NCBI GenBank assembly: GCA_049304095.1
Contig: JBAQNU010000024.1
Coordinates: 87,644 to 151,643, forward strand
DNA length: 64,000 bases
From: Candidatus Moraniibacteriota bacterium
GTDB taxonomy: Bacteria; Patescibacteriota; Minisyncoccia; Moranbacterales; UBA2206
Reading direction: 5' to 3'
In this document: positions 5,034-44,863 of the stretch, piece after piece
How the letters are laid out: each line of letters begins with the position of its first letter
How positions within the stretch are numbered: the stretch's first letter is position 1
Position numbers and translations under genes: made by a program
The notes under the pieces: model-generated
Seen by the model: only the letters and a program-made list of their open reading frames with translations
Database searches by the model: none
What the model was told of the DNA's origin: nothing

Positions 5034-6827
5034 TTATTTATTCAAAAGATAAATTTTGCCGTTCGTGGTGTTTTCTGTTTTTTGTGGCAAGCCAATTGGA
5101 GCACTAGGCATTTCTTCTGGGTCAAAGGTGGAAAGGAAAGTCCTATCCAGTGCATAATCTTTGTAGACGCTAAATTTAGCAAGAAATCCATCCTTCTCAT
5201 AGAAGGCTAAATTTTTATCGGGAACAATTAGATAGACATTGGAAAATTTTGTTGTGTCAATTTTAGCCAAATCATTGGGGTTAAAAAAATAGACTGCATT
5301 TTTGCCAAAGAGAAAACTCATGGGTGCGCCGAGCATTGACCAGCCATCGCCAGAAGCCAAGCGGTCAACAAGGATAAGATCGGTGTTGGAAAAATTTTCG
5401 CTAAGCTGGTTGGTTTGCGCAGTCAAGTCGGCGTTTTCTCGGAAAGTGAAATAGGGCCAAGAAATAATTAGGTTGGTAATGATTAGAATACTAATCAAGA
5501 TTGACGCATAGATTTTTTTGGTAAACAGTCGATCAATGACGAGAATGGAATAAAAAATCGCTCCAGGAATAATAGTGAAAGCAAAACGTCTGAGCATCCA
5601 GGGATGATCGAGTGAGATGCCGGGATGAATGAGATAGATGAAGGTGGGCAAAATTATGAGAGCAGGCACGAGAATGACGTAGTTTCTTTTGAGCAAAAAA
5701 TAGCTTAGTCCGATTGCTCCAATGATCAGAAATGGCAGGATGTTATAGAGAGAGAATATTTCAAAGAGATAACTAACAGCGGAAAAAGGCACAGAACTGC
5801 TTTCGCCAGGTGAAAATGAGCGTAGAAGACCTTTGAGAGAGGCTAGGTAGAATTGATTATTGACAAATATATTGATGAGATAGACGAAAAAAAATCCGCC
5901 CAAGAGCCAGACTGTTTTTTTCAGTAGTGTTTTTTCCAATCCAAACTTAGTCTTTTTTTGAACTATGCCAAACAGGACTAATAGCATCAAAAGAAATGCC
6001 CAGGTTTCTATTCGAGTGAAAGTGAGGATGAGAAAGGCCGAGAGCGCACCTAGAAGATAGAGAGACTTTTTGAATTTGAAAAATAGGCTGAGCTCTAAAA
6101 GACCAAACCAAATAAAGGCTAGTGCGATATTTTCGCTGAGTGTGAATTTGAAAAGCCAGGCGAAAACAAACGAACTGAAAAGACAACCAAACGCCCAAAA
6201 AGCCGGCTTGGTCGAAGAGTGAAGTTCCGTGAGTAGGAAAAAAGCTAGAAGGAAAAGAAAGAATGTGATGCTGTTGGCAATGACGAACCCAATGAGGCCA
6301 AAGAGGGAGTAGAACGTTGCTAGCCATGCAATGTAGCCAAGGGAAAAATGGGTAATCAGGCTTCCTGAGCGAGTATAATTGAAGCCGGGAAAATTGAGCG
6401 CCGTGCCTGGGCCATAGATTTTGAAAAATTCTTGCGAAGCGGTTGAGCTAAAGGCTAATTGATGATTTTGCGCCAGGCGCACGGCTGCTTCGCTAAAGGA
6501 GCCTTGGTCGCGTCCAGAAAAAACAGTTGGCACAAAAGAGAAGGCTAGGAAAATAATAAAGCCAAGCGAGAGGAATGTAGCGGAAAGGAAACTGGCTGAT
6601 TTCAAAGCTTGACGATTGTGAACGAAAAGCGAGAGGAAGAATGAGCCACCGAAAAAAAGATAGCCAGCCAAAATCGGCCAATAGAAAAAATTAGTTAGCG
6701 CGAGCACAATTGCCAAAACTTCCAGGCCAATGAAAAAGAGTCCTAGAAAAGAAAATAGCTGGTATTTGTTGAGGTTTTTTGGTAGTTTCATTATTCCAAT
6801 TATAGCGTCAAAAATTCTTTTTGCCAA
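5034..6827 (-). CDS. Multi-pass membrane protein, probable GT-C-fold glycosyltransferase (ArnT/PMT-like)
   Basis: More than 10 TM helices N-terminal with an RDQGSFSEAA loop after TM segments (resembles the DE/RDE motif of GT39/GT83 enzymes); soluble C-terminal domain; sits in the glycan locus. Confidence 0.4.
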   Translation of the reverse strand: MAKRIFDAIIGIMKLPKNLNKYQLFSFLGLFFIGLEVLAIVLALTNFFYWPILAGYLFFGGSFFLSLFVHNRQALKSASFLSATFLSLGFIIFLAFSFVPTVFSGRDQGSFSEAAVRLAQNHQLAFSSTASQEFFKIYGPGTALNFPGFNYTRSGSLITHFSLGYIAWLATFYSLFGLIGFVIANSITFFLFLLAFFLLTELHSSTKPAFWAFGCLFSSFVFAWLFKFTLSENIALAFIWFGLLELSLFFKFKKSLYLLGALSAFLILTFTRIETWAFLLMLLVLFGIVQKKTKFGLEKTLLKKTVWLLGGFFFVYLINIFVNNQFYLASLKGLLRSFSPGESSSVPFSAVSYLFEIFSLYNILPFLIIGAIGLSYFLLKRNYVILVPALIILPTFIYLIHPGISLDHPWMLRRFAFTIIPGAIFYSILVIDRLFTKKIYASILISILIITNLIISWPYFTFRENADLTAQTNQLSENFSNTDLILVDRLASGDGWSMLGAPMSFLFGKNAVYFFNPNDLAKIDTTKFSNVYLIVPDKNLAFYEKDGFLAKFSVYKDYALDRTFLSTFDPEEMPSAPIGLPQKTENTTNGKIYLLNK

Positions 6828-15493: not shown

Positions 15494-16762
15494 ATGGGTA
15501 TTTTTTCTAAAATTTTAGGCGGAAGCAAATCGTCTTCGCAGTATTATTTATCGCTTGATATTGGCACGGAAGTGGTCAAGGCGCTCGTGTTTAAGGTGGA
15601 CGTAGAAAATGGCACGGGCATCGTGAAGGGTGTGGGACGAGCCAGGCAAGGCATCAAAGATATGCACAGCGGTGCTGTTTCTGATATTACGGGCGTAATT
15701 GAAAATTGCGCGCGGGCGATTGAAGCTGCCAAATCAATGGCGGGGGCAAAAAAAGTGGAAAAAGCGATTGTGGGCATTGCCGGCGAGTTGGTCAAAGGCA
15801 CAACCACCACTGTGCACTACGAACGCATCAAGCCAGAAGTGCGCATTGATTTTCCAGAACTGAAAAATATTATTCAAAAAGTGCAATGGAAGGCGTTTGA
15901 TCGTATTAGGCAACAACTAGCCTGGGAAACAGGACACAATGAAATTGAAGTGAAACTGATCAATGCAGCCATTGTGGATGTGCGCATCGATGGCTATAAA
16001 ATTACTAATCCCTTGGGTTTTCAAGGCAAGGATGTATCTATTGCCGTTTTCAACGCCTATGCTCCAATGGTGCACTTAGGCGCATTGCAGACAATTGCAG
16101 ATGAATTGAAATTGGAACTGCTTTGCATCGCAGCAGAGCCCTATGCGGTAGCCAAATCAATGGGCGTGGATGACGTTTTGGATTTTAGCGCCATTTTCAT
16201 TGACATTGGTGGTGGCACAACTGACATTGCCCTTGTGCGAAACGGAGGTTTGGAAGGTACAAAAATGTTTGCGCTAGGTGGACGAGCCTTTACTAAGCGC
16301 CTTGCGATGGAACTTAATGTTGGATTTGAAGAGGCAGAAAGTTTCAAGATTCGCTATGCAGAGGGAAAGCTCGGCAAAGATGTTTCGGATAAGTTGGAGA
16401 AAATATTTTTTGATGATTGTAATGTTTGGCTCTCGGGAGTGGAGTTGTCATTGTCAGAATTTTCCGATAGTGATCTTTTGCCACATCGCATTTTCCTTTG
16501 CGGTGGTGGCTCAGGATTGCCTGGAATCAAAAAAGCTTTGCTTTCAGCGCAATGGACAAAGAATTTGCCTTTTGCTAAGGAAGTGGAGGTTAATTTTTTG
16601 CAGCCAAAAGATGTGGTAAATATTTTTGATGAAACGAGAGAGTTACGTGACCCACAAGATATCACTCCGATGGGCTTGGCTAATCTCGCACTTGAAGCGG
16701 TTGGCGAAGAGAAGGTATTGGCCGGAATATTGCGCAGAGCTGTGAAGATGATTCAAAAATAA
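15494..16762 (+). CDS. Actin-fold ATPase, FtsA-like (alternatively PilM-like)
   Basis: LSLDIGTEVVKALVF phosphate-1 and IDIGGGTTDIALV phosphate-2 motifs. The basic/hydrophobic C-terminal segment (LAGILRRAVKMIQK) resembles the FtsA membrane-targeting helix. No ftsZ is adjacent. Confidence 0.5.
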   Translation: MGIFSKILGGSKSSSQYYLSLDIGTEVVKALVFKVDVENGTGIVKGVGRARQGIKDMHSGAVSDITGVIENCARAIEAAKSMAGAKKVEKAIVGIAGELVKGTTTTVHYERIKPEVRIDFPELKNIIQKVQWKAFDRIRQQLAWETGHNEIEVKLINAAIVDVRIDGYKITNPLGFQGKDVSIAVFNAYAPMVHLGALQTIADELKLELLCIAAEPYAVAKSMGVDDVLDFSAIFIDIGGGTTDIALVRNGGLEGTKMFALGGRAFTKRLAMELNVGFEEAESFKIRYAEGKLGKDVSDKLEKIFFDDCNVWLSGVELSLSEFSDSDLLPHRIFLCGGGSGLPGIKKALLSAQWTKNLPFAKEVEVNFLQPKDVVNIFDETRELRDPQDITPMGLANLALEAVGEEKVLAGILRRAVKMIQK

Positions 16763-16810: not shown

Positions 16811-18757
16811 ATGCACCAAACATTTTATATTGACATTGATGAGGAAATAACTTCAATCGTGGAAAAGTTGCGAAAAACTGAAGCGCCAGAGGTAATTATG
16901 GTTGTGCCAAAACGGGCACTGCTTATTCAAAGTATCGTTAACTTAAAACTTTTGCGAAAAGTGGCGGAGGAGCTGGGATTGAAAATCAGTATTGTGACCC
17001 AAGATAAACTAGGTAAAATGCTTGTCAACAAAGCAGGCATTGCTGTGCAACAAAAATTGGAAGATGACCCCGAGGAGTTGGAAGCGACTTCGGATAATGG
17101 AGAAAATGGCAAAAAAGTAGTCTTGGAAGATGGCGCAGAGGGTGAACCAGCATCATTGCTAAATAGCAAACAAAACAGACGTCTTGATAGGATTGGTTCC
17201 GCGGAATATTTTAATTATAATAATGAAGAAAATATTCACACCGAATTGGAGCAAATCGAAAAACCAAAAAAACCTTTGGCGCAGAAAGTGCCAATATATG
17301 TTGAAAAAAATAGGCCGAGTGTTGAAAATCCACTTTCTGGCATTCGTTTAGATGAGGAAATACCGGTTGTCAAAAAAAGATCTCCTAGTATGGATGTTTC
17401 GCGTTCAAACATGAGAAAGCCAATCCCAACGCGGGTCGTGCGAGAAAAAACGGTTTTTCCTGAGGAGAAGCAAGGGGAATCTTCTCGCGATGAGCAACTG
17501 GAACAGTTTTTCTATGCGAATAATTTTGCGGATAGAAAAAAATCTGATTCTCTTGGAGAAGAACGTAGCAAAAAAAACGTTGGAACAGGGCTTAAGATCC
17601 TGGCTATTATTTTGGCCATTGCACTGACCGGAGGATTGGCTTATGGAGCCTATCTCTATGTGCCTAAAGCTATAATCACTCTTTCTGCTAAAAAGGAAGT
17701 AAAATCAACTGAAGCAAACATCACTGCTACTACCAACCAAGAAAGCATTGATTTGGAAAAATCAATTATTCCAGCAAAAGTGTTAGATTTTGATGATACA
17801 GTTTCTCAAACCTTTGTAGCTACTGGGGAAAAGAGTGTTTCTGATCAAAAAGCCAAAGGTAAGATTACAATCTATAATGAATTCAGTTCTTTGCCGCAAC
17901 CGCTAGTGGCAACAACCAGGTTTATAAGCGAAGACCAGAAAATATTTCGTTTAGTGCAAAGTGTGACCATTCCCGGTACCACTAAAGTTGGCACGGAAAT
18001 AAAGCCAGGCGTTACCGAAGCGGAAGTTATTGCTGATGAATCTGGCGATGGCTATAACATTCCTGCGGCCAATTTTTCCATCCCTGGTTTCAAAGATAGT
18101 GGCAGTGAGAAATATGCCAAGATTTATGCCAAGTCTACCGCGGCAATGACTGGTGGTGGAACGGGTGGCAGTACTGTGAAAATGATTACTGACAAGGATT
18201 TGGCAGACGCAAAAGACAAAATTTCCCTGGAGATTACTGATGCGATAAAGCAAAAAGTTAAGGATTCAGTCGGCTCTGGTCAGGTCGTTTTGGACAAAGC
18301 AATTTCCCTGGAGGAACCAGTTTATACCTTGTCTGGTGCAGTTGGTGATATTGTGGATAATTTTGAAATAAAAGTTCAAGCCAAAGCCAAGGCAATTGTA
18401 TTTCTGGAAAGTGACCTAAAAAAACTTGCTAACACCATCATTGTTAAAACAAAAAATAGTAAGGTAAACCTGAACGATGGGGCATTGATTATCGACTATG
18501 GGCAAGTAAATGCTGACTTTAGTGCAAATACTCTGGATATTGCAATAAAAGCTTCCAGCGTGACAGAGCCGAATTTTGACTTGGAAGCTATGAAAAAAGG
18601 CTTCCTGGGGAAAGACACAGAAGCGTTGACGGATTATCTGAAGAGTTATCCTAACATTGAAAAAGCGGAAGTGGAATATTGGCCGCCAGTGTTTGTGAAC
18701 AAGGTTCCAATGCAAGAGAAGAGAGTGGAAGTGATTTTGGATTATATCATGCCCTAG
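16811..18757 (+). CDS. Hypothetical bitopic membrane protein: ~255-aa cytoplasmic N-domain, one TM, ~370-aa extracytoplasmic domain
   Basis: TM segment GLKILAIILAIALTGGLAYGAYLYV. Downstream of and likely co-transcribed with the FtsA-like gene. Confidence 0.4.
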   Translation: MHQTFYIDIDEEITSIVEKLRKTEAPEVIMVVPKRALLIQSIVNLKLLRKVAEELGLKISIVTQDKLGKMLVNKAGIAVQQKLEDDPEELEATSDNGENGKKVVLEDGAEGEPASLLNSKQNRRLDRIGSAEYFNYNNEENIHTELEQIEKPKKPLAQKVPIYVEKNRPSVENPLSGIRLDEEIPVVKKRSPSMDVSRSNMRKPIPTRVVREKTVFPEEKQGESSRDEQLEQFFYANNFADRKKSDSLGEERSKKNVGTGLKILAIILAIALTGGLAYGAYLYVPKAIITLSAKKEVKSTEANITATTNQESIDLEKSIIPAKVLDFDDTVSQTFVATGEKSVSDQKAKGKITIYNEFSSLPQPLVATTRFISEDQKIFRLVQSVTIPGTTKVGTEIKPGVTEAEVIADESGDGYNIPAANFSIPGFKDSGSEKYAKIYAKSTAAMTGGGTGGSTVKMITDKDLADAKDKISLEITDAIKQKVKDSVGSGQVVLDKAISLEEPVYTLSGAVGDIVDNFEIKVQAKAKAIVFLESDLKKLANTIIVKTKNSKVNLNDGALIIDYGQVNADFSANTLDIAIKASSVTEPNFDLEAMKKGFLGKDTEALTDYLKSYPNIEKAEVEYWPPVFVNKVPMQEKRVEVILDYIMP

Positions 18758-30166: not shown

Positions 30167-30958
30167 ATGGCAAAGATTATTTCATTAGTCAACCAAAAGG
30201 GCGGAGTGGGCAAAACTACCTCGGCCATTAACCTTGCGACATACCTTGCGTCAGCAGGGAAATTTGTGCTCCTTGTTGACCTTGATCCGCAGGGCAATGC
30301 TTCGTCAGGTCTGGGAATTGACATCCGTTCAGTCAAAAAAAGCCTCTATCACACAATGATTTTGGGGGAACACCCGAAAAATGTCATTATGCGTACGGAA
30401 ACATTGGGACACGATTTGATGCCTTCATCGCAAGATTTGGCCGGAGCGGGGATTGAGCTTGTGCACATGGACAATCGCGAATTTCGACTCTACAATGTTC
30501 TGCGTGAAATTCGTACCAGCTATGATTACATCATTATTGATTCGCCACCGAGCCTCGGATTGCTCACGATTAACGGCCTCGTGGCAAGTGATGAAATCAT
30601 TATCCCTGTCCAGACAGAATATTTCGCCCTAGAAGGCTTGAGCCAACTTTTGAATACGATCAGCCTTGTGAAAGAAAATTTACAACCCAAGTTGAAAATT
30701 ATGGGAGCGTTGCTCACGATGTATGACAAGCGCAATCGCTTGTCGCGTCAAGTGGTGAAGGAAGTGCAAGATCATTTTCCCGGGCATGTTTTTGACAGCG
30801 TGATTCCACGCAGTGTGCGCTTGGCTGAAGCGCCAGGATTTGGCAAATCAATCTTAGGATTTGATGCATTTTCTCGTGGCGCGAGGTCATATAAAAGTTT
30901 TGCGAAAGAAGTGATTGGCCTTGAAAAGACAGAGGAGCCAAGAAAATTTAGTGTTTAA
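30167..30958 (+). CDS. parA: Chromosome partitioning ATPase ParA/Soj
   Basis: Deviant Walker A KGGVGKTT; followed by parB. Confidence 0.85.
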   Translation: MAKIISLVNQKGGVGKTTSAINLATYLASAGKFVLLVDLDPQGNASSGLGIDIRSVKKSLYHTMILGEHPKNVIMRTETLGHDLMPSSQDLAGAGIELVHMDNREFRLYNVLREIRTSYDYIIIDSPPSLGLLTINGLVASDEIIIPVQTEYFALEGLSQLLNTISLVKENLQPKLKIMGALLTMYDKRNRLSRQVVKEVQDHFPGHVFDSVIPRSVRLAEAPGFGKSILGFDAFSRGARSYKSFAKEVIGLEKTEEPRKFSV

Positions 30959-30978
30959 AAGATTTATTTAAATAATAT

Positions 30979-31157
30979 AGGAGCTACGCATTTCACCTCG
31001 CAGCCGCATTGACTAAAAAAATAACTCGAACGCTCTTTTTTCTTTTCAAAACTTTCCCTCACTCGGCGGCATCCAATGGAAAGTTTTGAAGAAAAAAGGC
31101 ATTCTCAAACAGGATTTTTTTAGCCAATACGGCTGACTCGGATAAATGCGTAGGTCA
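30979..31157 (+). mobile_element. Copy 3 of the MITE-like repeat, inserted between the parA stop and the parB start
   Basis: Near-identical to copy 1 (same ends aggagnTACGCATTT ... AAATGCGTAgGTC). Degenerate AT-rich flanking repeats (aaataat / aaataaa). Confidence 0.7.
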
Positions 31158-31169
31158 TGAAATAAAAAA

Positions 31170-32102
31170 ATGGCACAAAATTATGGATTAGGTCGGGGAC
31201 TTTCTTCACTTATTCCCCAAAAAGCAAAAAAACTGACTGAACCAGAAGCGGATTTTAATTATTTTGGCTCAGGAAAAAGAGAGGAGAATGATAAGATTGC
31301 ACCAACTAGTGCGCCAAAGTTGATTGAAGACAATGAAGTCGAGATTTCGCGCATCGTGCCCAATCCACATCAACCGCGTTTTCATTTTGATGAAACGAAA
31401 TTGCAAGAGTTGGCCAATTCCATCAAAGAGCATGGCATCATCCAACCGATTGTGGTGAGCAAAAATAATGAAAATAGTTTTGAAATTATTGCCGGGGAAC
31501 GGCGTTTTCAGGCTGCCAAACTGGCGGGACTACTGAAAGTGCCGGTGGTGGTGCGTGATGTAACAGAGCAACAAAAACTAGAGCTGGCGATTATTGAAAA
31601 CATTCAACGGCACGATTTAAATCCAGTGGAAGAGGCCAGATCATATCAAAAACTAATTGATGAGTTTGATTTGAGTCAAGAAGAAGCGGCCACAAAACTT
31701 GGTAAGAGTCGCTCTTCCGTGGCGAATAAGTTACGAATTTTAAGTTTGCCGGTGGAGATTCAAAAAGCGCTGATGGAAGGCAAGATCACCGAAGGTCATG
31801 CCAAGGCAATTCTCGCCATTGAAAACCCCGAAAAGCAAAAAGCGCTATACGAGCTAATTTTGAAAAGTGGTCTGACGGTGCGTCAAACGGAAGAGAAAAC
31901 CAAAGAAGTTTCCGTACGCACACACAAACGCTTAGTCAATGTCGACCCAGAGCAAAAAGCTCTAGAAGACAATCTTTCGCAAGCCCTGAAAACAAAAGTC
32001 AAACTGCAAAAATCCGGCACCGGCGGAAAAATTGTGATTGAATTTTATTCCCAAGAGGAGTTGCAAAGCATCGCAGAGAATATCGAGAGGATTGGGAGAT
32101 AA
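31170..32102 (+). CDS. parB: Chromosome partitioning protein ParB/Spo0J
   Basis: ParB box IIAGERRFQAAKLAG and HTH domain. Confidence 0.85.
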   Translation: MAQNYGLGRGLSSLIPQKAKKLTEPEADFNYFGSGKREENDKIAPTSAPKLIEDNEVEISRIVPNPHQPRFHFDETKLQELANSIKEHGIIQPIVVSKNNENSFEIIAGERRFQAAKLAGLLKVPVVVRDVTEQQKLELAIIENIQRHDLNPVEEARSYQKLIDEFDLSQEEAATKLGKSRSSVANKLRILSLPVEIQKALMEGKITEGHAKAILAIENPEKQKALYELILKSGLTVRQTEEKTKEVSVRTHKRLVNVDPEQKALEDNLSQALKTKVKLQKSGTGGKIVIEFYSQEELQSIAENIERIGR

Positions 32103-32708: not shown

Positions 32709-32960
32709 GTGCTAATGTCGTGGTATAAAGTAATTAATTATATGCGTAAAATTGATCTAAAAAATGTGGTTTGGAAAGAGGGGGAGTATTATGTTGCCCA
32801 GTGTTTGAACGTGGACGTTTCTAGCTTTGGAACAACCAAAAAAGAGGCACTGTGCGCATTAGACGAAGCACTTGAATTATATTTTGAGGATATAAAAGTT
32901 CCCAAAGTGACTAGCATTGAAAGACCGGAACTTGTCCAAATGTCAATTTGCCATGCCTAA
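32709..32960 (+). CDS. hicB: HicB-family antitoxin (UPF0150, RNase-H-like fold)
   Basis: 83-aa protein with the YVAQCLNVDVSSFGTTKKEALCALDEALELYFE pattern; overlaps hicA by 8 nt (ATGCCTAA). Confidence 0.6.
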   Translation: MLMSWYKVINYMRKIDLKNVVWKEGEYYVAQCLNVDVSSFGTTKKEALCALDEALELYFEDIKVPKVTSIERPELVQMSICHA

Positions 32961-33171
32961 ACTTTATTCATCTTCAGAAATTATCAAAGTCCTGCAAAAA
33001 CGGGGCTTTGTTTATATTTCCCAAAAAGGCAGTCACGCAAAATTTAGAAAAACTGCCAGTCCAACCTTGACAGCGATTGTTCCAGCGGGGAAAAGAGAAA
33101 TTCCTTTTGGAACTTTCAGATCAATTTTGCGTCAAGCTAATCTAAGTGAAGATGATTTTAGGAAAAAATAA
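32953..33171 (+). CDS. hicA: HicA-family mRNA interferase toxin
   Basis: GSHAKFRK...VPAGKREIPFGTFRSILRQANL matches the HicA/YcfA family. Start set to MPKLYSS, overlapping the hicB stop. Confidence 0.6.
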   Translation: MPKLYSSSEIIKVLQKRGFVYISQKGSHAKFRKTASPTLTAIVPAGKREIPFGTFRSILRQANLSEDDFRKK

Positions 33172-37202: not shown

Positions 37203-38318
37203 CTAGGAGAGAATATAATTTTGTCCGCCGATATTTTTTGTCCAGCCTTTGAGTTCCATCATGGTGAGGACGGAAGTAGTCATGGCAGTTCCAAGATTTG
37301 TTATTTTTCCAATGACATCAATGTGAAGTGGCACTTCAGAAAGCACTCCTAAAATTAGTTCCTCCTCTTTATTTTCAGCGATACGCAATGGCCTTGTTTC
37401 AGTTTTTGCTTGCTGTGAAAAATTCAATTCTTCCAAAATATCCGTAATATTGGTGACTGATTTTGCTCCACTTTTAATGAGATTATTGGTACCAATAGAG
37501 TTCTCGGAAAAAATAGATCCAGGAATGGCAAACACTTCGCGATTATTTTCCAGCGCCATCCTGGCTGTGATAAGTGCCCCACTTCTTTCTCCTGCTTCGA
37601 TAACGAGTGTTCCCAATGACAGCCCGGCAATTAGTCGGTTTCGCGCGGGAAAGGTAAAATTATTAGCTGGAGTCTCTGGCGGATAATCACTCAAAAGTAA
37701 TCCGTCACACGCAATAATTTCATGAGCAAGCGCCAGATTTGCTCGAGGATAGATATTTCTCTCATCAATACTACTGCCTAAAACCGCTAGGGTTTTTCCT
37801 TGGGATTCCAGCGCGCTTTTGTGAGAAATGGCATCAATGCCCAGTGCTAATCCACTAACAATCACAAATCCAGCGGCAACTAAGTCATGCGCGAAACTGG
37901 TGGCCAGTTGTGCGCCATAGGGGGAATTTTTTCGAGAACCGACAATTGCAATGGCGGGATGTGCGTTCAAATCTAGTCGTCCTCTTGTATAGAGTAAATA
38001 GGGAGGATTATGAGCTTCCTTGAGAAGCGTGGGATAGGCGGGATTTTCAAAATCAATCAGCCGAATTTGTTCTCTTTCCAAATTTTTCCACTCCGCATCA
38101 GGGTTGATCCTATCTTTTTCTTGCCAAATTTTTTGGGCTAATTTGTGCCCCTCTAAAGCTGCGTTTAATTGAAAAAGATCAGCGCGCCAAATACTTTCGG
38201 CCGTGCCAAAATAGGCCAGAAGCTTTTTTATTTTTTGTGGCCCGACATTTTCAATTTTATTCAACGCATGAAGATATTTCATTTCAAAAGCATACCATAA
38301 ATAGTGAAAGGTTGACAA
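37203..38318 (-). CDS. dprA: DNA processing protein A (DprA/Smf)
   Basis: Rossmann-like IAIVGSRKNSPYG...GIDAISH motifs; usual smf-topA linkage. Confidence 0.8.
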   Translation of the reverse strand: MSTFHYLWYAFEMKYLHALNKIENVGPQKIKKLLAYFGTAESIWRADLFQLNAALEGHKLAQKIWQEKDRINPDAEWKNLEREQIRLIDFENPAYPTLLKEAHNPPYLLYTRGRLDLNAHPAIAIVGSRKNSPYGAQLATSFAHDLVAAGFVIVSGLALGIDAISHKSALESQGKTLAVLGSSIDERNIYPRANLALAHEIIACDGLLLSDYPPETPANNFTFPARNRLIAGLSLGTLVIEAGERSGALITARMALENNREVFAIPGSIFSENSIGTNNLIKSGAKSVTNITDILEELNFSQQAKTETRPLRIAENKEEELILGVLSEVPLHIDVIGKITNLGTAMTTSVLTMMELKGWTKNIGGQNYILS

Positions 38319-38341
38319 ATTTAGGGGATATGTGATAGTAT
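38312..38341 (+). promoter_or_regulatory. Candidate sigma70-type promoter TTGACA-18 nt-TAGTAT in the dprA-divergent intergenic region
   Basis: Hexamers read off the sequence about 45 nt upstream of ATG 38383. Confidence 0.35.
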
Positions 38342-38382
38342 GTATGGAAGTCTAGTCTAACTATTTTTATCAAACCTAACAA

Positions 38383-39435
38383 ATGGAACTACAACCCAAA
38401 AAAGAAGTGGCCCCGGAAAGAGAATATGAATTTTTTACTGTAGCTATGAATCTGCTCTCTGAGTTGCCTGAGCGAGCACAAAGCATTTTTTGCCAACGTT
38501 TTGGCTTGGCTTCTAGTTTTAAGGTGGAAACACTGGATCAGATTGGTGCAAATCATAAAGTCACGCGAGAGCGCATCCGGCAGATACTCACTTTTCACAA
38601 AAAACAAATCGCGCAAAAATGCGAAGGACCAGAGTTTAAGAAAGCAGAAAAAGAATTACTTTTTACGATTGCAAATAATTATGGTATAGTGAAAGAAGCT
38701 CATGCTATAAGACATCTGAATAAAAAGGAAGCGCTTGCCGAAGAGAATGCTTTGCGCTTTTTGGTTCATTGTTCCAAAAAAATCCAAGCTGTTTTTGAGC
38801 GAACTTTTTTGGAAAAATCTTGGGTGACTTCGCGTGAAGCATTGAATCAAGCGAAAAAGCTGATTGTAGAAGCGGAAAATACTCTAAAAAAAGAAAAACA
38901 ACCGCTGACCGGTGACGCCCTAGCCAAAAAGCTGAGCGCGCAATTTCCTGCTCTTTCCAAAAAAGCTATTTTGAATTTCTTGGAAAGTTCCGCTCAACTC
39001 AAGAGAAATAAATTTGGAAAATGGGGCTTTCATGACTGGTCAGAAATTAATCCAAAGGGTAGTCGAGAAAAAATTTATCTTGTTTTGAAAGAATCAAAAA
39101 AACCTCTGCATTTCACCAAGATCGCCAGCTTGATTGACAAACATGAATTGGGAAAGCGAAAGGCACATCCACAAACCATCCATAATGAACTAATTAAAGA
39201 CAAAAGATTCATTCTAGTTGGTCGAGGTATTTACGCCCTTTCCGAATGGGGTTATTATAGAGGAACAGTGCAAGATGTTATTCGCGACATCCTAACTAAA
39301 AATGGACCAATGGAGCGCAACGTGTTGATTGCCGAGATTCTCAAAATTAGAAAAGTGCAAAAATCAACAATTACGATTAATTTGAACCAAAAAAAATTCT
39401 TTAATCGAGCAGGAGATATCTATAGTTTGAAATAG
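38383..39435 (+). CDS. Putative DNA-binding regulator: N-terminal sigma-70 region-4-like HTH plus C-terminal HARE-HTH-like domain
   Basis: LPERAQSIFCQRFGL...TLDQIGANHKVTRERIRQIL resembles sigma region 4.2. The C-terminal FILVGRGIYALSEWGYY resembles the HARE-HTH/RNAP-delta fold (from memory). Confidence 0.45.
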   Translation: MELQPKKEVAPEREYEFFTVAMNLLSELPERAQSIFCQRFGLASSFKVETLDQIGANHKVTRERIRQILTFHKKQIAQKCEGPEFKKAEKELLFTIANNYGIVKEAHAIRHLNKKEALAEENALRFLVHCSKKIQAVFERTFLEKSWVTSREALNQAKKLIVEAENTLKKEKQPLTGDALAKKLSAQFPALSKKAILNFLESSAQLKRNKFGKWGFHDWSEINPKGSREKIYLVLKESKKPLHFTKIASLIDKHELGKRKAHPQTIHNELIKDKRFILVGRGIYALSEWGYYRGTVQDVIRDILTKNGPMERNVLIAEILKIRKVQKSTITINLNQKKFFNRAGDIYSLK

Positions 39436-39476
39436 TATAAACCAAACAGGCGAGGATAATCCTAAAAAATAAAAAA

Positions 39477-40748
39477 ATGGATAGTCCGATAAATTCTTTT
39501 GAAATATTAAAAACTTTTGGCACAGTTTTCTATCATGCTTGGTGGATTGTTTTAGTTTGGCCATTTTGGTATATTTTCAGTGATATATGGGGAGAATATG
39601 TTGCAATCTACGCTGACAACTCATTTTATAGCAAATACAAATGGACGATGCTGGAAATCATTCCGCCTCGTGACATTGAACGCGGTCCTAAGCCGATGGA
39701 AAATATTTTTGCTGGCTTGACTGGTGTTTGGTCAACTCGTAATCCTTTTGATTCGCATATTACTGGAGCCTATCGGCAAGATCCGTTTAGTTTTGAATTG
39801 GTCGGCGAAGAAGGTCGCGTACATTTCTATATTCGCACCCTAAAAGGTCGGCGCAATATGCTGGAAGCGCAAATTTATGCCCAATTTCCCGGAGCGCAAA
39901 TTATTGAAGTAGAGGATTACTATAATAAATTCCCAAAAATTGTACCCAATCGTGATTGGGATCTCTGGGGATCGGATTTTGATTTTGTGCAAAAAGACCC
40001 CTATTACCCGATCAAAACTTATGATCAATTTGAAGAGAGCATTACGGGTGAAATGATTGATCCAATGGCGGCGATTGTGGAGCAACTGGGAACACTTGGC
40101 CCGGGGCAACACATCTGGCTCCAATATATGACTGTTATGATTAGTGAGCCTGAGTCTTTTAAGGCTGGAAAGGCCTTGATAGACAAATTAAAAGGCAAAG
40201 AAGCGCCTGTAGCGATGGGTCTTTTTGGACATCTTCTCGATGTGTTTAAAAATATCCTCCCAGCTCTTTCTGCGCCAGTGGAATTCAAGACTTCTTCTAA
40301 AAAAGAAGACGCACCACTTGACACGCGCCTTTCGCCAATGGAACGAGAAGTCTTGAAATCTGTCGAAGAAAATGCGGGAAAGAATTTCTTCAAAACCAAG
40401 ATGCGCATGATCTACATTGGAAGAAAGGATGGTTTTGATCGAGGATATGTTGGTGGTTTTATTGGTGCGATCAAGCAATTTAATGATTCTCATTTTAATG
40501 GAGTGAAGCCGGAAGCGGTGAGTAAAACTGTGGGAACAATTTTTTTCACAAAGCAAAGAGCGGACTTTCGCAAGCGCAAAATTTATGATCGCTACAGAAG
40601 GCGCAATATGGATGGCTACAACTTGATACTTTCTGCAAAAGAACTGGCCACAATGTATCATTTTCCAGATATGATGGTAAAATCACCCTCTCTCACTCAG
40701 ATCACGTCTAAGGTGGGGGTTGCTCCAGCTAATTTGCCAGTGGAATAA
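39477..40748 (+). CDS. Hypothetical protein with one N-terminal TM helix and a ~390-aa soluble domain
   Basis: ORF only; FGTVFYHAWWIVLVWPFWYIF TM segment; no recognised motif. Confidence 0.4.
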   Translation: MDSPINSFEILKTFGTVFYHAWWIVLVWPFWYIFSDIWGEYVAIYADNSFYSKYKWTMLEIIPPRDIERGPKPMENIFAGLTGVWSTRNPFDSHITGAYRQDPFSFELVGEEGRVHFYIRTLKGRRNMLEAQIYAQFPGAQIIEVEDYYNKFPKIVPNRDWDLWGSDFDFVQKDPYYPIKTYDQFEESITGEMIDPMAAIVEQLGTLGPGQHIWLQYMTVMISEPESFKAGKALIDKLKGKEAPVAMGLFGHLLDVFKNILPALSAPVEFKTSSKKEDAPLDTRLSPMEREVLKSVEENAGKNFFKTKMRMIYIGRKDGFDRGYVGGFIGAIKQFNDSHFNGVKPEAVSKTVGTIFFTKQRADFRKRKIYDRYRRRNMDGYNLILSAKELATMYHFPDMMVKSPSLTQITSKVGVAPANLPVE

Positions 40749-40762
40749 AATCGAAACAACAT

Positions 40763-42601
40763 ATGAGTGAAATCAATTTTTTCGCCAAAACCAATTTTCG
40801 CAATCAAGAACGGATTTTCGGTATCAAAGAAGATGACCGGAGACGCCACATGTATATCATTGGAAAAACTGGCATGGGCAAATCCAGTCTCTTGGAAAAT
40901 ATGGCCATTCAGGATATTCGAAATGGTAAAGGTCTTTGCGTGGTTGATCCGCACGGAGAATTCGCGGAAAAGATGCTTCGCGCCATTCCCAAAAATCGCA
41001 TCAATGATGTGGTCTATTTCAATCCGTCTGATGTGGAATTTCCAGTGGCTTTCAATATCCTGGAAGCAGTTGATCCAGATAAGAAAAATTTAGTGGCATC
41101 AGGTCTCATGGGAGTATTTAAAAAGATTTGGCCAGATGTATGGAGCTCGCGCATGGAATATATTCTCAATAACGCTATTTTGGCTCTTCTCGATTATCCT
41201 GGCTCAACCCTTTTAGGGGTAAATCGCATGATGTCAGATGGAAATTTTCGCAAAAGAATCTACACAAAAATTACCGACCCCGTTGTGAAAGCTTTTTGGA
41301 TTAATGAGTTTGACAAATGGGATGACAAATTTAGGAAAGAAGCGGTAGCGGCGATTCAAAACAAGGTAGGACAATTTCTATCCTACACGCTTGTGCGACA
41401 CATCATCGGCCAACCCAAGTCTACAATCGATATGCGCGAGATAATGGACAATCAAAAAATTCTAATTGTCAATCTTTCCAAAGGAAAAATCGGTGAAGAT
41501 GCAATGCGACTGCTTGGCGGAATGATTATCACCAAAATTCAATTGGCCGCAATGAGTCGCGTGGATATTCCCGAAGACGAGCGCAAAGATTTCTATCTCT
41601 ATGTCGATGAATTCCAAAATTTTGCCACAGAAAGCTTTGCCAACATTCTCTCGGAAGCGAGAAAGTATCGCCTCGCTCTTATTTTAGCCCATCAGTATAT
41701 CAACCAACTGATTTTTGATGGCAATGCCACAGTGAAAGACGCTATTTTTGGCAACGTGGGAACGATGCTTACTTTTCGAGTTGGCGCGGAAGACGCGGAG
41801 GCACTAGAAAAAGAATTTGATCCAGTCTTTCTCATGAATGATATTGTTAATTTGTCAAAATATGATATCTATTTGAAACTGATGATTGATGGAATCGCTG
41901 GTGACGCTTTTTCAGCCAGGACTCTTCCTCCAGTCGATCTTTCCGAGACAGCCGCTAACACAGAAAAAGTGATTGCCATCTCTCGTGAACGCTATGGAAA
42001 ATCAAGTGTTGAGGTGGCGGAAAAAATTTCCCGCTGGAGTGGGATGGATTGTTTCGAAGAGGGAACAAATAATGTTCAAAAGATAACCTTGAGTGAACAA
42101 AAAACAACTCCAGTTGCCAGACAAGAAATAACCAGAGAAAGACAAGTAGTAGAAAGTATTACCCCTAAATCAGAAGAAAGCAAATTGGTCGCAATGACTC
42201 CGCCAACAAAACCACAGACTGATCTATTTGAAGCCACTTGCTATACTTGTGAAGAAAAAATTACTGTACCCTTTAAACCTGACCCCAGTCGAAAAACTTT
42301 TTGCAAAGAATGTCTCAAGGAATACCAAAGAATGAAAGCGAAGGTTGCACCGCCTATTGAAAACATCAAAAAGCCATTATCCAATTCCACGCCTGCCCTA
42401 GGAGCAGAAAAGACGGAACGAGTGCCTAGTCGAGAAGCGCAAGCCTTTCAATCGCCAGGACATGTGTCAAGTGAAAAAACAATTAGTCTCAATCAGATTA
42501 GCAATATTGCCCCAAAAAAATTTACTGCTCAAAAAAAGAATCTCAATCTTGACTCGGATGGGATTAGGGCGCTAATTAATAAAACCAAGGTTGCGCAATA
42601 A
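40763..42601 (+). CDS. FtsK/HerA-superfamily P-loop ATPase (DUF87/AAA_10-like) with C-terminal CxxC...CxxC zinc ribbon
   Basis: Walker A IIGKTGMGKS at residues ~33-40, followed ~20 aa later by VVDPHGEF, Walker B FYLYVDEFQNF, ARKYRLALILAHQ. C-terminal CYTCEEK...FCKECLKEY. Confidence 0.6.
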   Translation: MSEINFFAKTNFRNQERIFGIKEDDRRRHMYIIGKTGMGKSSLLENMAIQDIRNGKGLCVVDPHGEFAEKMLRAIPKNRINDVVYFNPSDVEFPVAFNILEAVDPDKKNLVASGLMGVFKKIWPDVWSSRMEYILNNAILALLDYPGSTLLGVNRMMSDGNFRKRIYTKITDPVVKAFWINEFDKWDDKFRKEAVAAIQNKVGQFLSYTLVRHIIGQPKSTIDMREIMDNQKILIVNLSKGKIGEDAMRLLGGMIITKIQLAAMSRVDIPEDERKDFYLYVDEFQNFATESFANILSEARKYRLALILAHQYINQLIFDGNATVKDAIFGNVGTMLTFRVGAEDAEALEKEFDPVFLMNDIVNLSKYDIYLKLMIDGIAGDAFSARTLPPVDLSETAANTEKVIAISRERYGKSSVEVAEKISRWSGMDCFEEGTNNVQKITLSEQKTTPVARQEITRERQVVESITPKSEESKLVAMTPPTKPQTDLFEATCYTCEEKITVPFKPDPSRKTFCKECLKEYQRMKAKVAPPIENIKKPLSNSTPALGAEKTERVPSREAQAFQSPGHVSSEKTISLNQISNIAPKKFTAQKKNLNLDSDGIRALINKTKVAQ

Positions 42602-42603
42602 AA

Positions 42604-42771
42604 ATGGATAAATTCAATCTGGACCAAAAAATTTCCAGCTATCTAGCTTTTTGCTTTATTCTAATCCTAAGTTTTGTTGTGGCCTGGAAAGCGCTATCAG
42701 TGGGAAACACAATTATTGAAAATGCCCCAAATTCAAACGCTTTCAATCCAATGAAAGACGCACTGAAATAA
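42604..42771 (+). CDS. Candidate 55-aa single-TM small protein (MDKFNLDQKISSYLAFCFILILSFVVAWKAL...), not in the ORF track because it is under 60 aa
   Basis: ATG 3 nt after the ATPase stop and ends 4 nt before mnmA; one hydrophobic helix. Confidence 0.3.
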   Translation: MDKFNLDQKISSYLAFCFILILSFVVAWKALSVGNTIIENAPNSNAFNPMKDALK

Positions 42772-42775
42772 GCCT

Positions 42776-43883: not shown

Positions 43884-44315
43884 ATGAAAACTAAATTAAA
43901 AAAAATGGATAAAAAAACAGAGGAGCTATTTAAAGCCAGTAGCGTGGCGGTTCTTTTGGAAAATATGAACGACAATATTAAAATTCTCGCGGAAGGACAA
44001 CTGAGTTTGCGAGAAGAAATGCACAGAAATACTGACGACCTGCGAGGAGAAATAAGCGATTTGCGAGGAGAGATGCGCGGAGCAATAAATAATCTACGAG
44101 GAGAGATGAAGGAGATGAGAGGGGGTTTCGATTTACTCATGGAATACGTGAAGCGCATTGATGAAGAAGTGACTAGCATCAGAAAAGAATTCGAAGGCGT
44201 GAAAGAAAAAAAGGTTGATTGGAGTATTTATTCCGCCTTGGAAAAACAAATGAACGTGGCCGAAATTCAGATAGAAAAAATGAAAGTCTTGCTTAAGTTA
44301 AAAAATAGTAACTAA
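43884..44315 (+). CDS. Hypothetical coiled-coil protein with tandem (D/N)LRGE(I/M) repeats
   Basis: DLRGEISDLRGEMRGAINNLRGEMKEMRGG; encoded by imperfect ~24-nt tandem DNA repeats at about 44040-44125. Confidence 0.4.
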   Translation: MKTKLKKMDKKTEELFKASSVAVLLENMNDNIKILAEGQLSLREEMHRNTDDLRGEISDLRGEMRGAINNLRGEMKEMRGGFDLLMEYVKRIDEEVTSIRKEFEGVKEKKVDWSIYSALEKQMNVAEIQIEKMKVLLKLKNSN

Positions 44316-44316
44316 T

Positions 44317-44619
44317 ATGTATATTCGAAACGCAACAAGCACGAGCACCGATGACACTGAGGACAAGCAAAAAAAAGCGGAAATTGAAAGCAAAAAAAGA
44401 CGCATTCAGATGGAGATTTTGATTATGGAGGGCGATTTACGGAAAATAAATACCGACAAAATTTCTGCTGACAATGACATTCGTAAATTAACTCGTGACG
44501 CTGAGCGCATTCGCATCAATTTGGACGAAAAAAAACGCCATCTGGCAAAACTGATGCAAGACGCCAGAACGACTGAAGACGAATTGCGCACCCTCCGCAA
44601 AAAACTTAATTTGTTATAA
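44317..44619 (+). CDS. Hypothetical 100-aa coiled-coil protein
   Basis: Charged heptad-rich ORF. Confidence 0.35.
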   Translation: MYIRNATSTSTDDTEDKQKKAEIESKKRRIQMEILIMEGDLRKINTDKISADNDIRKLTRDAERIRINLDEKKRHLAKLMQDARTTEDELRTLRKKLNLL

Positions 44620-44638
44620 TTTTTAAAATTAAAATTGT

Positions 44639-44863
44639 ATGTTGTCAAATTTCAAAGGCATCGTAGAAGATATTGCTAAAACTAAAGATAAAATAGATGC
44701 GTATGACTGGGAGAAGAAAACTGAATATATCGAAGAGGATTTAAATAATGGCAAGATAGATCTATCAACAGCATTGGAAACATTAAAGGATACTTTCAAG
44801 TCTGAATTAAGTGCTGATGACTATAGGAAGATAGAAAAAGAGGTGGGGTATAATGTTAAGTAA
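44639..44863 (+). CDS. Hypothetical 74-aa acidic protein
   Basis: ORF only. Confidence 0.3.
   Translation: MLSNFKGIVEDIAKTKDKIDAYDWEKKTEYIEEDLNNGKIDLSTALETLKDTFKSELSADDYRKIEKEVGYNVK

Follow-up and report, generated by a model that had tools for sequence, protein, structure and literature searches.

Type IV coupling proteins (T4CPs), e.g., TrwB of plasmid R388, TraD, VirD4 and DotL, combine a nucleotide-binding domain with an N-terminal transmembrane (TM) domain on the same chain. In VirB4 (TrwK in plasmid R388), a P-loop domain comes after an N-terminal domain, with about 800-1,000 aa in the fused form, and the protein is encoded with VirB3, VirB6 and VirB8 of a type IV secretion system (T4SS). 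Earlier surveys of Patescibacteria found VirD4-like genes to be almost universal in the phylum, seldom near a T4SS and possibly 'exapted'; their partners were not described. Among 3,035 Patescibacteria genomes, VirD4-type homologues were reported in 2,918 (5,713 genes) and VirB4 in 2,417, and 148 of the 5,713 VirD4-type homologues were near virB4; the authors remark that the gene may be exapted (Quinonero-Coronel et al. 2025, PMC12102498). Here we analyze a 64-kb stretch of DNA from a Candidatus Moraniibacteriota metagenome-assembled genome (MAG), called the window below, in which four plus-strand genes, g1 to g4, include an ATPase of this kind. We consider two conclusions to be well supported, namely that g1-g2-g3 is a Patescibacteria-wide, vertically inherited chromosomal operon, and that g2 and g3 each contribute one half of a single motor of VirB4 architecture. 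The four open reading frames (ORFs) lie exactly where an earlier note on this DNA had placed them, and the motifs it had pointed out (a helix-turn-helix (HTH) and a HARE-HTH in g1; a Walker A, a DPHGE box and CxxC-x17-CxxC in g3) are all present.

The ATPase gene g3 (40763..42601, plus strand; 612 aa) encodes a P-loop ATPase of the TrwB/TraD/VirD4 type in which the core is followed by a variable linker, a Zn ribbon and, at the C-terminus, a short helix. Domain calls were judged against Pfam's curated cut-offs, and g3 exceeds those of TrwB_AAD_bind (PF10412; 48.5 bits vs. 20.5), DUF87 (37.9 vs. 23.2), T4SS-DNA_transf (PF02534; 29 vs. 20.1) and TraG-D_C (PF12696; 24.7 vs. 22). When a profile of the g3 family is compared with the PDB, TrwB (1.6e-7) and DotL (2.8e-6) are its best solved relatives, HerA follows at 0.02, and chains of VirB4 and FtsK are absent from the matches. 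The Walker A motif GKTGMGKS (residues 34-41; 40862..40885, plus strand) takes the form GxxGxGK[ST] in 75 of 76 orthologues, and the DPHGE box (residues 62-66; 40946..40960, plus strand), which reads DPHG[ED] in 74 of the 76, aligns with DPNGD of TrwB. The Walker B motif LYVDEF (residues 279-284, with D282 and E283; 41597..41614, plus strand) is invariant in our alignments and aligns with LFIDE of TrwB; Walker A aligns with TrwB as well. In an AF2 model built from 31 close homologues (pLDDT 50), the stretch between Walker A and Walker B is all-helical over residues 105-229, and may, with low confidence, stand in the place of the all-alpha domain of T4CPs.

In other respects, g3 differs from T4CPs. 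On the Kyte-Doolittle scale, which we used to score all hydrophobic segments, neither the window's g3 nor any of 67 orthologues shows a TM-like segment; Walker A already begins at residue 34, and the anchor is on a separate protein, g2, that also has a VirB4-like N-terminal domain. The unit is chromosomal and phylum-wide, with no linked T4SS or relaxase, and g3 has an additional Zn ribbon and tail. The Zn ribbon (C493-x2-C496-x17-C514-x2-C517; 42239..42313, plus strand) matches Pfam zf_Tbcl_2 over residues 488-520 at 32.2 bits vs. a cut-off of 27. Of 70 complete orthologues, 45 have this module, which is therefore optional; the remainder have a basic, proline-rich tail. The extreme C-terminal helix, LNLDSDGIRALINKTKVAQ (42542..42598, plus strand), is a candidate partner-binding tail, and is placed at residues 598-611 in the same poor model. 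Its motif occurs in the last 45 residues of 40 out of 67 orthologues, compared with about 1 in shuffled tails. Named T4CP subfamilies score g3 far below their cut-offs, i.e., TIGR03743 (TraD) at 48 vs. 366 and the VirD4-like CD1115 family NF045973 at 45.5 vs. 250.

The earlier note had placed g3 in the FtsK/HerA/VirB4/VirD4 translocase superfamily, with which the profiles agree. It had also likened g3 to HerA and VirB4, and the composition of the unit to the archaeal Ced system and conjugative T4SS cores. The profiles do not bear out HerA or Ced: g3 is TrwB/TraD-like, i.e., of T4CP type, and its CedD and HerA matches are limited to the P-loop stretch. The Ced ATPase model NF053655 gives 33 bits vs. 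600, over residues 16-75 only. Among PADLOC models the best match is mad8 (4e-18); HerA is weaker and covers residues 28-69 only. VirB4 ATPase profiles are also below their cut-offs (AAA_10, E 0.041 and 13.4 bits vs. 27.5; TIGR00929, 14.3 vs. 643), and Pfam's FtsK_SpoIIIE gives no match even at E up to 1; in contrast to FtsK with its gamma DNA-reading domain, any reader of DNA would be a separate protein, g1. HerA, Ced and MzaA were rejected as family assignments, since the matches span only the P-loop or, in g1, the sigma-4 stretch. The note's analogy with Ced is apt in that the ATPase superfamily is the same and that a membrane partner and small TM proteins are encoded alongside. However, the unit has no CedA-like polytopic protein, as g2 is not polytopic, and its small TM peptide g4 is not conserved.

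The membrane partner g2 (39477..40748, plus strand; 423 aa) had been described as a single-TM protein without recognizable domains. In fact, its homologues carry Pfam PF26449/DUF8128; this label is on all 120 g2 homologues listed, and the window's g2 is labelled '(weak)'. The TM segment is marginal in the window's copy, where it scores 1.26, but clear in most orthologues, which have a median maximum of 1.98 near residue 18 and of which 60 out of 77 reach the threshold of 1.6 that we used for counting. The aromatic-rich hydrophobic segment in question (residues 14-34; 39516..39578, plus strand) is the probable membrane anchor, and helices are predicted at residues 7-25 and 27-45. After this N-terminal anchor comes a cytoplasmic domain with no P-loop, whose predicted fold resembles the N-terminal domain of VirB4. 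The AlphaFold model (pLDDT 70, pTM 0.66) was compared by Foldseek with solved structures; all of the top 14 matches are chains of TrwK, the VirB4 of plasmid R388, and nothing else was significant. Because g2 lacks a P-loop and corresponds to the part of the phage protein gp156 (see below) that precedes its ATPase, we infer that the model matches specifically the N-terminal domain of VirB4. Sequence comparison of the g2 family profile with the PDB found nothing, and a literature search for DUF8128 likewise found nothing. The family's most conserved stretch is a C-terminal signature, S-x-KELAT-x-(Y/F)HFP...VK-x-P...G-x-AP-x-NLP (residues 386-421; 40632..40739, plus strand), which sits where the ATPase follows in fused homologues. 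Six of its residues in g2 (E389, A391, H395, P397, P417 and P421) do not vary among 33 diverse sequences.

The closest full-length relatives of g2-g3 are phage proteins of phrog_5156 (gp156, the 'MsbA-like' protein of phage JL, TP-84 gp48 and D6E ORF23), each of which joins a g2-like N-terminal half and a g3-like ATPase in a single chain. In this family (824 positions, one phage family), g2 matches near the N-terminus at 5.4e-6, and g3 matches over positions 407-805 at 8.9e-61. Within gp156 of Bacillus phage G (825 aa), residues 381-815 align with g3 (27% identity, 9e-48) and residues 51-103 align with residues 104-155 of g2. The AlphaFold model of g2, when compared with BFVD, also finds gp156 (3.4e-15) and two further proteins of Bacillus phages, with a weaker match to the neighboring VirB4-like gp155. 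The phage proteins differ from the unit in being fused, viral and without a g1-like neighbor, and their identity is 21-27%. Their genes lie in accessory regions after lysis genes or, in phage G, beside the VirB4-like gene. In one Patescibacteria MAG, labelled 'uncultured Gammaproteobacteria', g2 and g3 are a single ORF of about 1,000 aa (L081:5338-8292) that carries the T4CP domains and the Zn ribbon; this ORF could be a natural fusion or reflect a lost stop codon. The dedicated membrane partner that the earlier note had envisaged for the ATPase exists, and is g2. The order of the two halves, an N-terminal domain and then a P-loop domain, is shared with VirB4/TrwK. The unit differs from VirB4 in that the halves are two genes, that the ATPase half is VirD4-like by sequence and that VirB3, VirB6 and VirB8 are not nearby; single chains are limited to L081, the phage homologues and, apparently, SEML1_0293 of Southlakia epibionticum. 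TrsD and the short VirB4 of the Patescibacterial T4SS likewise have a VirB4-N-domain-like protein apart from the ATPase (Quinonero-Coronel et al. 2025, PMC12102498). However, their genes are part of the T4SS locus and essential in S. epibionticum, whereas g2-g3 is located elsewhere, has a VirD4-type ATPase and has a fused homologue that is dispensable.

The remaining member of the operon, g1 (38383..39435, plus strand; 350 aa), is called 'sigma factor-like helix-turn-helix DNA-binding protein' in GenBank. In this cytoplasmic protein, a helical linker joins a sigma-70 region-4 domain to a C-terminal HARE-HTH/winged-helix part. The sigma-4 domain (residues 24-69; 38452..38589, plus strand) matches Pfam Sigma70_r4 at 35 bits vs. 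a cut-off of 24.1. The HARE-HTH (residues 231-289; 39073..39249, plus strand; PF05066, E 7.7e-7, 29.9 bits vs. 25.9) is the best-conserved part of the C-terminal half. Against the PDB, the g1 family profile finds region 4 of primary sigma factors (E about 1e-19), to which residues 23-70 align. The recognition helix VTRERIRQI (residues 60-68; 38560-38586, plus strand), inside the sigma-4 domain, is identical in M. tuberculosis SigA, and R62, E63, R64, R66 and Q67 are invariant in 32 orthologues. From structural work, we take the equivalent positions of sigma region 4.2 to be those that contact the -35 element. Judging from sequence, it is reasonable to suppose that g1 may bind a TTGACA-like element or the beta flap. 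However, g1 is neither a sigma factor nor the delta subunit of RNA polymerase, because the other sigma regions are absent and its score is under the delta cut-off. Sigma profiles matched no region 2 or other region, only region 4 at residues 24-69, and the scores of sigma models are far below their cut-offs (e.g., RpoD_Cterm, 35 vs. 354); lacking regions 1-3, g1 cannot be a sigma factor. The delta-subunit model TIGR04567 gives 29.5 bits vs. 42, and the HARE-HTH that g1 shares with delta is C-terminal with no acidic tail after it, in contrast to delta's N-terminal HARE-HTH and acidic tail. What sets g1 apart from both is that it joins the two modules in one protein and is encoded with a membrane ATPase. 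Literature searches on HARE-HTH combined with sigma, and on FtsK in bacteria of the candidate phyla radiation (CPR), found nothing relevant.

A search of 1.84 billion representatives gave g2 relatives that make up 1,593 clusters at 50% identity, and at least 579 species-representative genomes contain one. The matches include Moran-, Terry-, Yanofsky-, Lipton-, Buchanan-, Magasanik- and Portnoy-bacteria, Paceibacterota and other lineages. We retrieved genomic loci with the g2 C-terminal pattern as the query, and our synteny counts refer to the best 80 of the at least 579 loci, at species level, with g2 identities of 30-56%. Because some loci end too close to g2, we also give denominators that are corrected for room (77 loci for g1, 79 for g3, and 61, with at least 1.5 kb of upstream sequence, for secDF). 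Directly 5' of g2 and on the same strand, g1 is found in 71 of the 80 loci (71 of the 77 with room), and g3 is directly 3' of g2 in 76 (76 of the 79 with room). The median gaps are 59 nt between g1 and g2 and 23 nt between g2 and g3. Exceptions are a lone g2 followed by a 1,031-aa subtilase (L066:6974-11303) and two loci without g3 despite room (L046 and L075). Across lineages, the median identity is 35% for g1 and 35% for g2. For g3 it is 57% over about 520 residues, compared with 53% for AlaRS and 42% for MnmA from the same loci; the motor is thus conserved at the level of an aminoacyl-tRNA synthetase. We found one partial match in the 2.9 million contigs of IMG/VR, and GC content is flat across the region. 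The unit is a vertically inherited core operon and not an island, and an origin from a mobile element was rejected.

In most lineages, the operon follows genes for SecDF. At 40 of the 61 testable loci, g1 is directly preceded by secD-secF in the same orientation, a median of 66 nt separating secF from g1, and five-gene arrays secD-secF-g1-g2-g3 occur among the loci L007-L086 (e.g., L076:3508-5894 and L047:3471-5817). The window itself has no secDF. The linkage may reflect function or inherited gene order. Downstream, the recurrent neighbors are mnmA (24-26 loci), alaS (14-19) and efp (16). In contrast, dprA, topA and relA are adjacent in 3 of the 80 loci, all of them the closest Moranbacteria. 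The linkage to dprA to which the earlier note had drawn attention is not conserved beyond these close relatives, and the adjacency in this genome carries no functional signal.

The four-gene unit proposed in that note is a real conserved unit, but of three genes, g1-g2-g3, and g4 falls outside it. The 55-aa g4 (42604..42771, plus strand) begins 2 nt past the g3 stop codon, is a called gene in GenBank and has a strong TM segment (2.27). Similar peptides are confined to Moranbacteria, with homologues in two other loci (L007 and L008) and a similar 61-aa TM ORF after g3 in a third (L009). Six loci (L013, L015, L017, L021, L022 and L030) have, 50-85 nt past g3, a second type of TM peptide (35-36 aa, MSF[RK]KMHKK.Y.FWVV...) that replaces the g4 type of 55-65 aa; both types occur within the Moranbacteria order only. 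Outside Moranbacteria, nothing comparable was found among the 80 loci. The small peptide is a lineage-specific addition of Moranbacteria.

Published data on S. epibionticum, the only Patescibacterium with transposon sequencing (Tn-seq) data, bear on this operon. In the tables of Wang et al. (PMC10633639, Tables S1 and S2), SEML1_0294 has 349 aa, with Sigma70_r4 at residues 27-72 and HARE-HTH at 225-283. Beside it, SEML1_0293 has 921 aa, with T4CP domains at residues 402-719 and no assignment for its N-terminal 360 residues. These two genes apparently have the architecture of g1 followed by that of a fused g2 and g3, and both are flagged as core, Patescibacteria-enriched families (PMC10633639). 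SEML1_0294 was essential at all three Tn-seq time points, and SEML1_0293 was called non-essential, although with normalized reads that dropped from 5,817 to 1,372 over the passages (PMC10633639). The T4SS locus of S. epibionticum is essential and has no recognizable coupling protein. A second T4CP/FtsK-like gene, SEML1_0142 (1,019 aa, with a TraM-recognition domain), is essential in Tn-seq, and may be the real coupling protein of the T4SS or an FtsK analogue. Families of the SEML1_0142 type and the SEML1_0293 type were probably pooled in the survey's figure of about two T4CP homologues per genome. The Tn-seq library was built by natural transformation, and comEC, comF and dprA also score as non-essential, so the dispensability of SEML1_0293 does not argue against a role in competence. 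In the S. epibionticum genome, dprA is four genes from the unit.

We tentatively propose that the operon encodes a housekeeping-like, membrane-associated translocase of coupling type for DNA or nucleoprotein that is independent of a T4SS and has a DNA reader derived from sigma region 4, and we regard this proposal as quite possible, if still short of probable. The g2 protein would tether an oligomer of g3 at the cytoplasmic face of the membrane, and g3, with ATP, would move or remodel a DNA or nucleoprotein substrate, as coupling proteins do. Recognition of DNA, or regulation, would fall to g1, as a stand-alone sigma-4 domain that keeps the -35-reading residues together with its HARE-HTH/winged helices. 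An example of such a role would be the handling of chromosomal DNA at the membrane, independently of a type IV secretion apparatus. We favor independence from a T4SS because the unit is near-universal, conserved at the level of AlaRS and not linked to T4SS genes, because its ATPase is dispensable where the T4SS is essential, and because it has its own VirB4-like docking domain. It is important to emphasize several points that weigh against this proposal. DNA is assumed to be the substrate of g3 from its family membership and its DNA-binding partner, and the linkage to secDF could point to protein export rather than DNA. Because g1 is essential and the ATPase is dispensable, g1 must act beyond the ATPase or restrain it. 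The orthology of SEML1_0293 and SEML1_0294 is argued from domain architecture, length and adjacency, the published genome counts of VirD4-type genes pool at least two T4CP-like families, and we judged the AF2 model of g3 to be too poor for fold comparison, so its helical insert is a low-confidence reading. A bolder version of the proposal, which we consider unlikely, is that the essential sigma-4 reader binds -35-like DNA or RNA polymerase and recruits chromosomal or promoter DNA to a membrane VirB4/VirD4 hybrid motor that shares one operon with SecDF in most lineages, the whole being specific to Patescibacteria and free of any T4SS. If true, this would be an unrecognized coupling of DNA or transcription to the membrane, in cells without most classical regulation, and in this family an intermediate that links VirB4 with coupling proteins would survive to the present.

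A distal coupling role is a serious rival to a T4SS-independent translocase, because T4CPs are known only for feeding a T4SS and because Patescibacterial T4SS loci lack a recognizable T4CP. According to this explanation, g2-g3 would dock on a distal VirB4/VirB6 and deliver DNA or protein chosen by g1, which would resemble a relaxosome accessory protein. Every profile makes g3 T4CP-like, T4CP genes are often distant from virB4, the T4SS locus of S. epibionticum has no recognizable coupling protein, and in phage G the fused gp156 adjoins the VirB4-like ATPase gp155. The conserved tail of g3 also resembles what we take, from general knowledge, to be the partner-binding tails of TraD-type proteins. 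However, in S. epibionticum the T4SS is essential and SEML1_0293 is not, and the essential SEML1_0142 could be the true partner. T4CP-like genes are also in more genomes than VirB4. Neither the ORFs checked in the 64-kb window nor the recurrent neighbors of the 80 loci include T4SS or relaxase genes, g3 is conserved far above what is usual for T4SS parts, and g2 already provides a VirB4-like N-terminal domain. On balance, we consider an orphan coupling protein possible, but rather unlikely. The motor for transformation that the earlier note had suggested, in which the ATPase pulls DNA through or alongside ComEC and passes it to DprA, was argued from the dprA neighborhood and is highly doubtful now that dprA is adjacent in only 3 of the 80 loci. 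In its favor, the unit diverges from an adjoining dprA here and in the closest relatives, dprA is four genes off in S. epibionticum, SEML1_0293 is non-essential like comEC, comF and dprA, and the published set of com genes conserved in Patescibacteria (ComEC, DprA and ComFC) names no uptake ATPase. However, com or pilus genes do not recur near the unit in the 80 loci, and a double-stranded DNA reader of -35 type with an essential g1-like gene is unexpected for a competence module. Moreover, dprA and topA are themselves a widespread housekeeping pair, and we know of no transformation system that pairs a T4CP-type motor with ComEC; the ComB system of Helicobacter is a T4SS without VirD4.

The properties of g1 suggest a different explanation, a transcription machine in which g1 would bind RNA polymerase (sigma-4 with the beta flap, and HARE-HTH as in delta) or -35 boxes, and the ATPase would remodel or tether the resulting complexes, possibly coupled to SecDF-dependent export. 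In accordance with this idea, g1 unites modules of two RNA polymerase subunits and retains the recognition helix of primary sigma factors, the g1-like gene is essential and secDF is directly 5' in 40 of 61 loci. However, RNA polymerase is not known to be a target of any T4CP/VirB4-type ATPase, g1 has no sigma region 2 and is under the delta-subunit cut-off (29.5 vs. 42), the secDF linkage may be inherited housekeeping gene order, and TTGACA is neither enriched nor strand-skewed in the window. We therefore find a transcription machine distinctly unlikely. Essentiality of g1 but not of the ATPase is also the classic pattern of antitoxin and toxin, and would be explained by a defense or toxin-regulator system resembling HerA or MADS, with the ATPase as effector and g1 as its repressor or inhibitor. 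The best PADLOC match of g3 is indeed mad8, ahead of HerA, g1 resembles the sigma-4 part of MzaA, and the fused homologues lie in accessory regions of Firmicute phages after lysis genes. Nevertheless, the HerA and MzaA matches are partial (P-loop and sigma-4, respectively) and far under the family cut-offs. In contrast to HerA-NurA, no effector partner is found in the unit or among its conserved neighbors, and there is no nuclease, Sir2, NurA or methylase partner. In contrast to MADS, the mad8 match of g3 is accompanied only by a weak MzaA match for g1, with no PADLOC matches for g2 or g4, and the neighbors are housekeeping genes. The unit is also near-universal, in housekeeping synteny, conserved like AlaRS and essentially absent from IMG/VR. 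In view of this phylum-wide vertical conservation and housekeeping context, defense, which the earlier note had offered as its HerA-based alternative, is very improbable.

Some of these components are already known, since earlier work had recorded the ATPase as an orphan T4CP homologue, and supplementary tables contain the genes of S. epibionticum. In the literature, we found no description of the three-gene unit or of its split/fused relationship, of DUF8128 as a VirB4-N-domain-like partner, of the other partner's sigma-4 nature, or of the secDF context. Patescibacteria, with their very small genomes, account for much of bacterial diversity, so a gene set that nearly all of them keep likely matters. 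The T4CP-like ATPase travels with a VirB4-N-domain-like membrane protein and with a sigma-4/HARE-HTH protein whose apparent homologue is essential, which provides a concrete three-protein target for the genetically tractable Saccharibacteria. The natural pairing of a VirB4-type N-terminal domain with a coupling-protein-type ATPase also bears on how T4SS ATPases diversified. These observations should be relevant to specialists in CPR biology and T4SS evolution, with the function a proposal at the level of sequence.

Upstream of g1, the promoter described in the earlier note (TTGACA-18-TAGTAT) exists as a sequence at 38312..38341 (plus strand), with TTGACA at 38312 and either 18 nt to TAGTAT or 16 nt to GATAGT, the latter with a TG. 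However, the region contains 13 such sites, compared with 11.9 +/- 3.4 in shuffled sequences, and since this count is not above the shuffles, the TTGACA match alone is no evidence of a promoter. The site is also specific to the Moranbacteria arrangement, because g1 follows secF in most other lineages. In the whole window, TTGACA occurs 53 times (30 on the plus strand and 23 on the minus), compared with 45.7 +/- 6.8 expected. With neither enrichment nor strand polarity, it was rejected as a site for g1. The longest ORF of dprA (37203-38318, minus strand; Pfam DNA_processg_A, 1.7e-75) would leave the 64-bp divergent gap that had been reported, and its TTG start overlaps the TTGACA hexamer. The ATG at 38282 is the more likely start, and the intergenic region is then about 100 bp; the resulting 359 aa are the same as in the NCBI/GenBank call, and homologues have 360-365 aa.

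Several other features of the window deserve mention. At 6 kb upstream of the unit are parA and parB (30167-32102, plus strand), which indicate that this part of the window is probably near the replication origin. A link between the unit and partition genes was rejected, as parB recurs in one of the 80 loci and parA in none. ParA-like genes also occur near the fused homologues of phage D6E and Microcystis phage Mwe-JY31. Between a methyltransferase gene and relA, a small overlapping pair (32742-33171, plus strand), with a weak DUF7387 match followed by a HicA toxin domain, looks by its sequence like a HicAB-type toxin-antitoxin. Two longer ORFs (5034-6827, minus strand, 597 aa; 16811-18757, plus strand, 648 aa) match no Pfam family at E up to 1e-5, and the 648-aa ORF comes after an FtsA-like gene (15494-16762). 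On the other side of the unit, mnmA begins 4 nt 3' of g4. The interval between mnmA and alaS (43884-44863, plus strand) has three small, highly charged, coiled-coil-like ORFs of 143, 100 and 74 aa, the first with a CCDC90-like match, and two other loci (L001 and L003) likewise have two or three small ORFs at this position.

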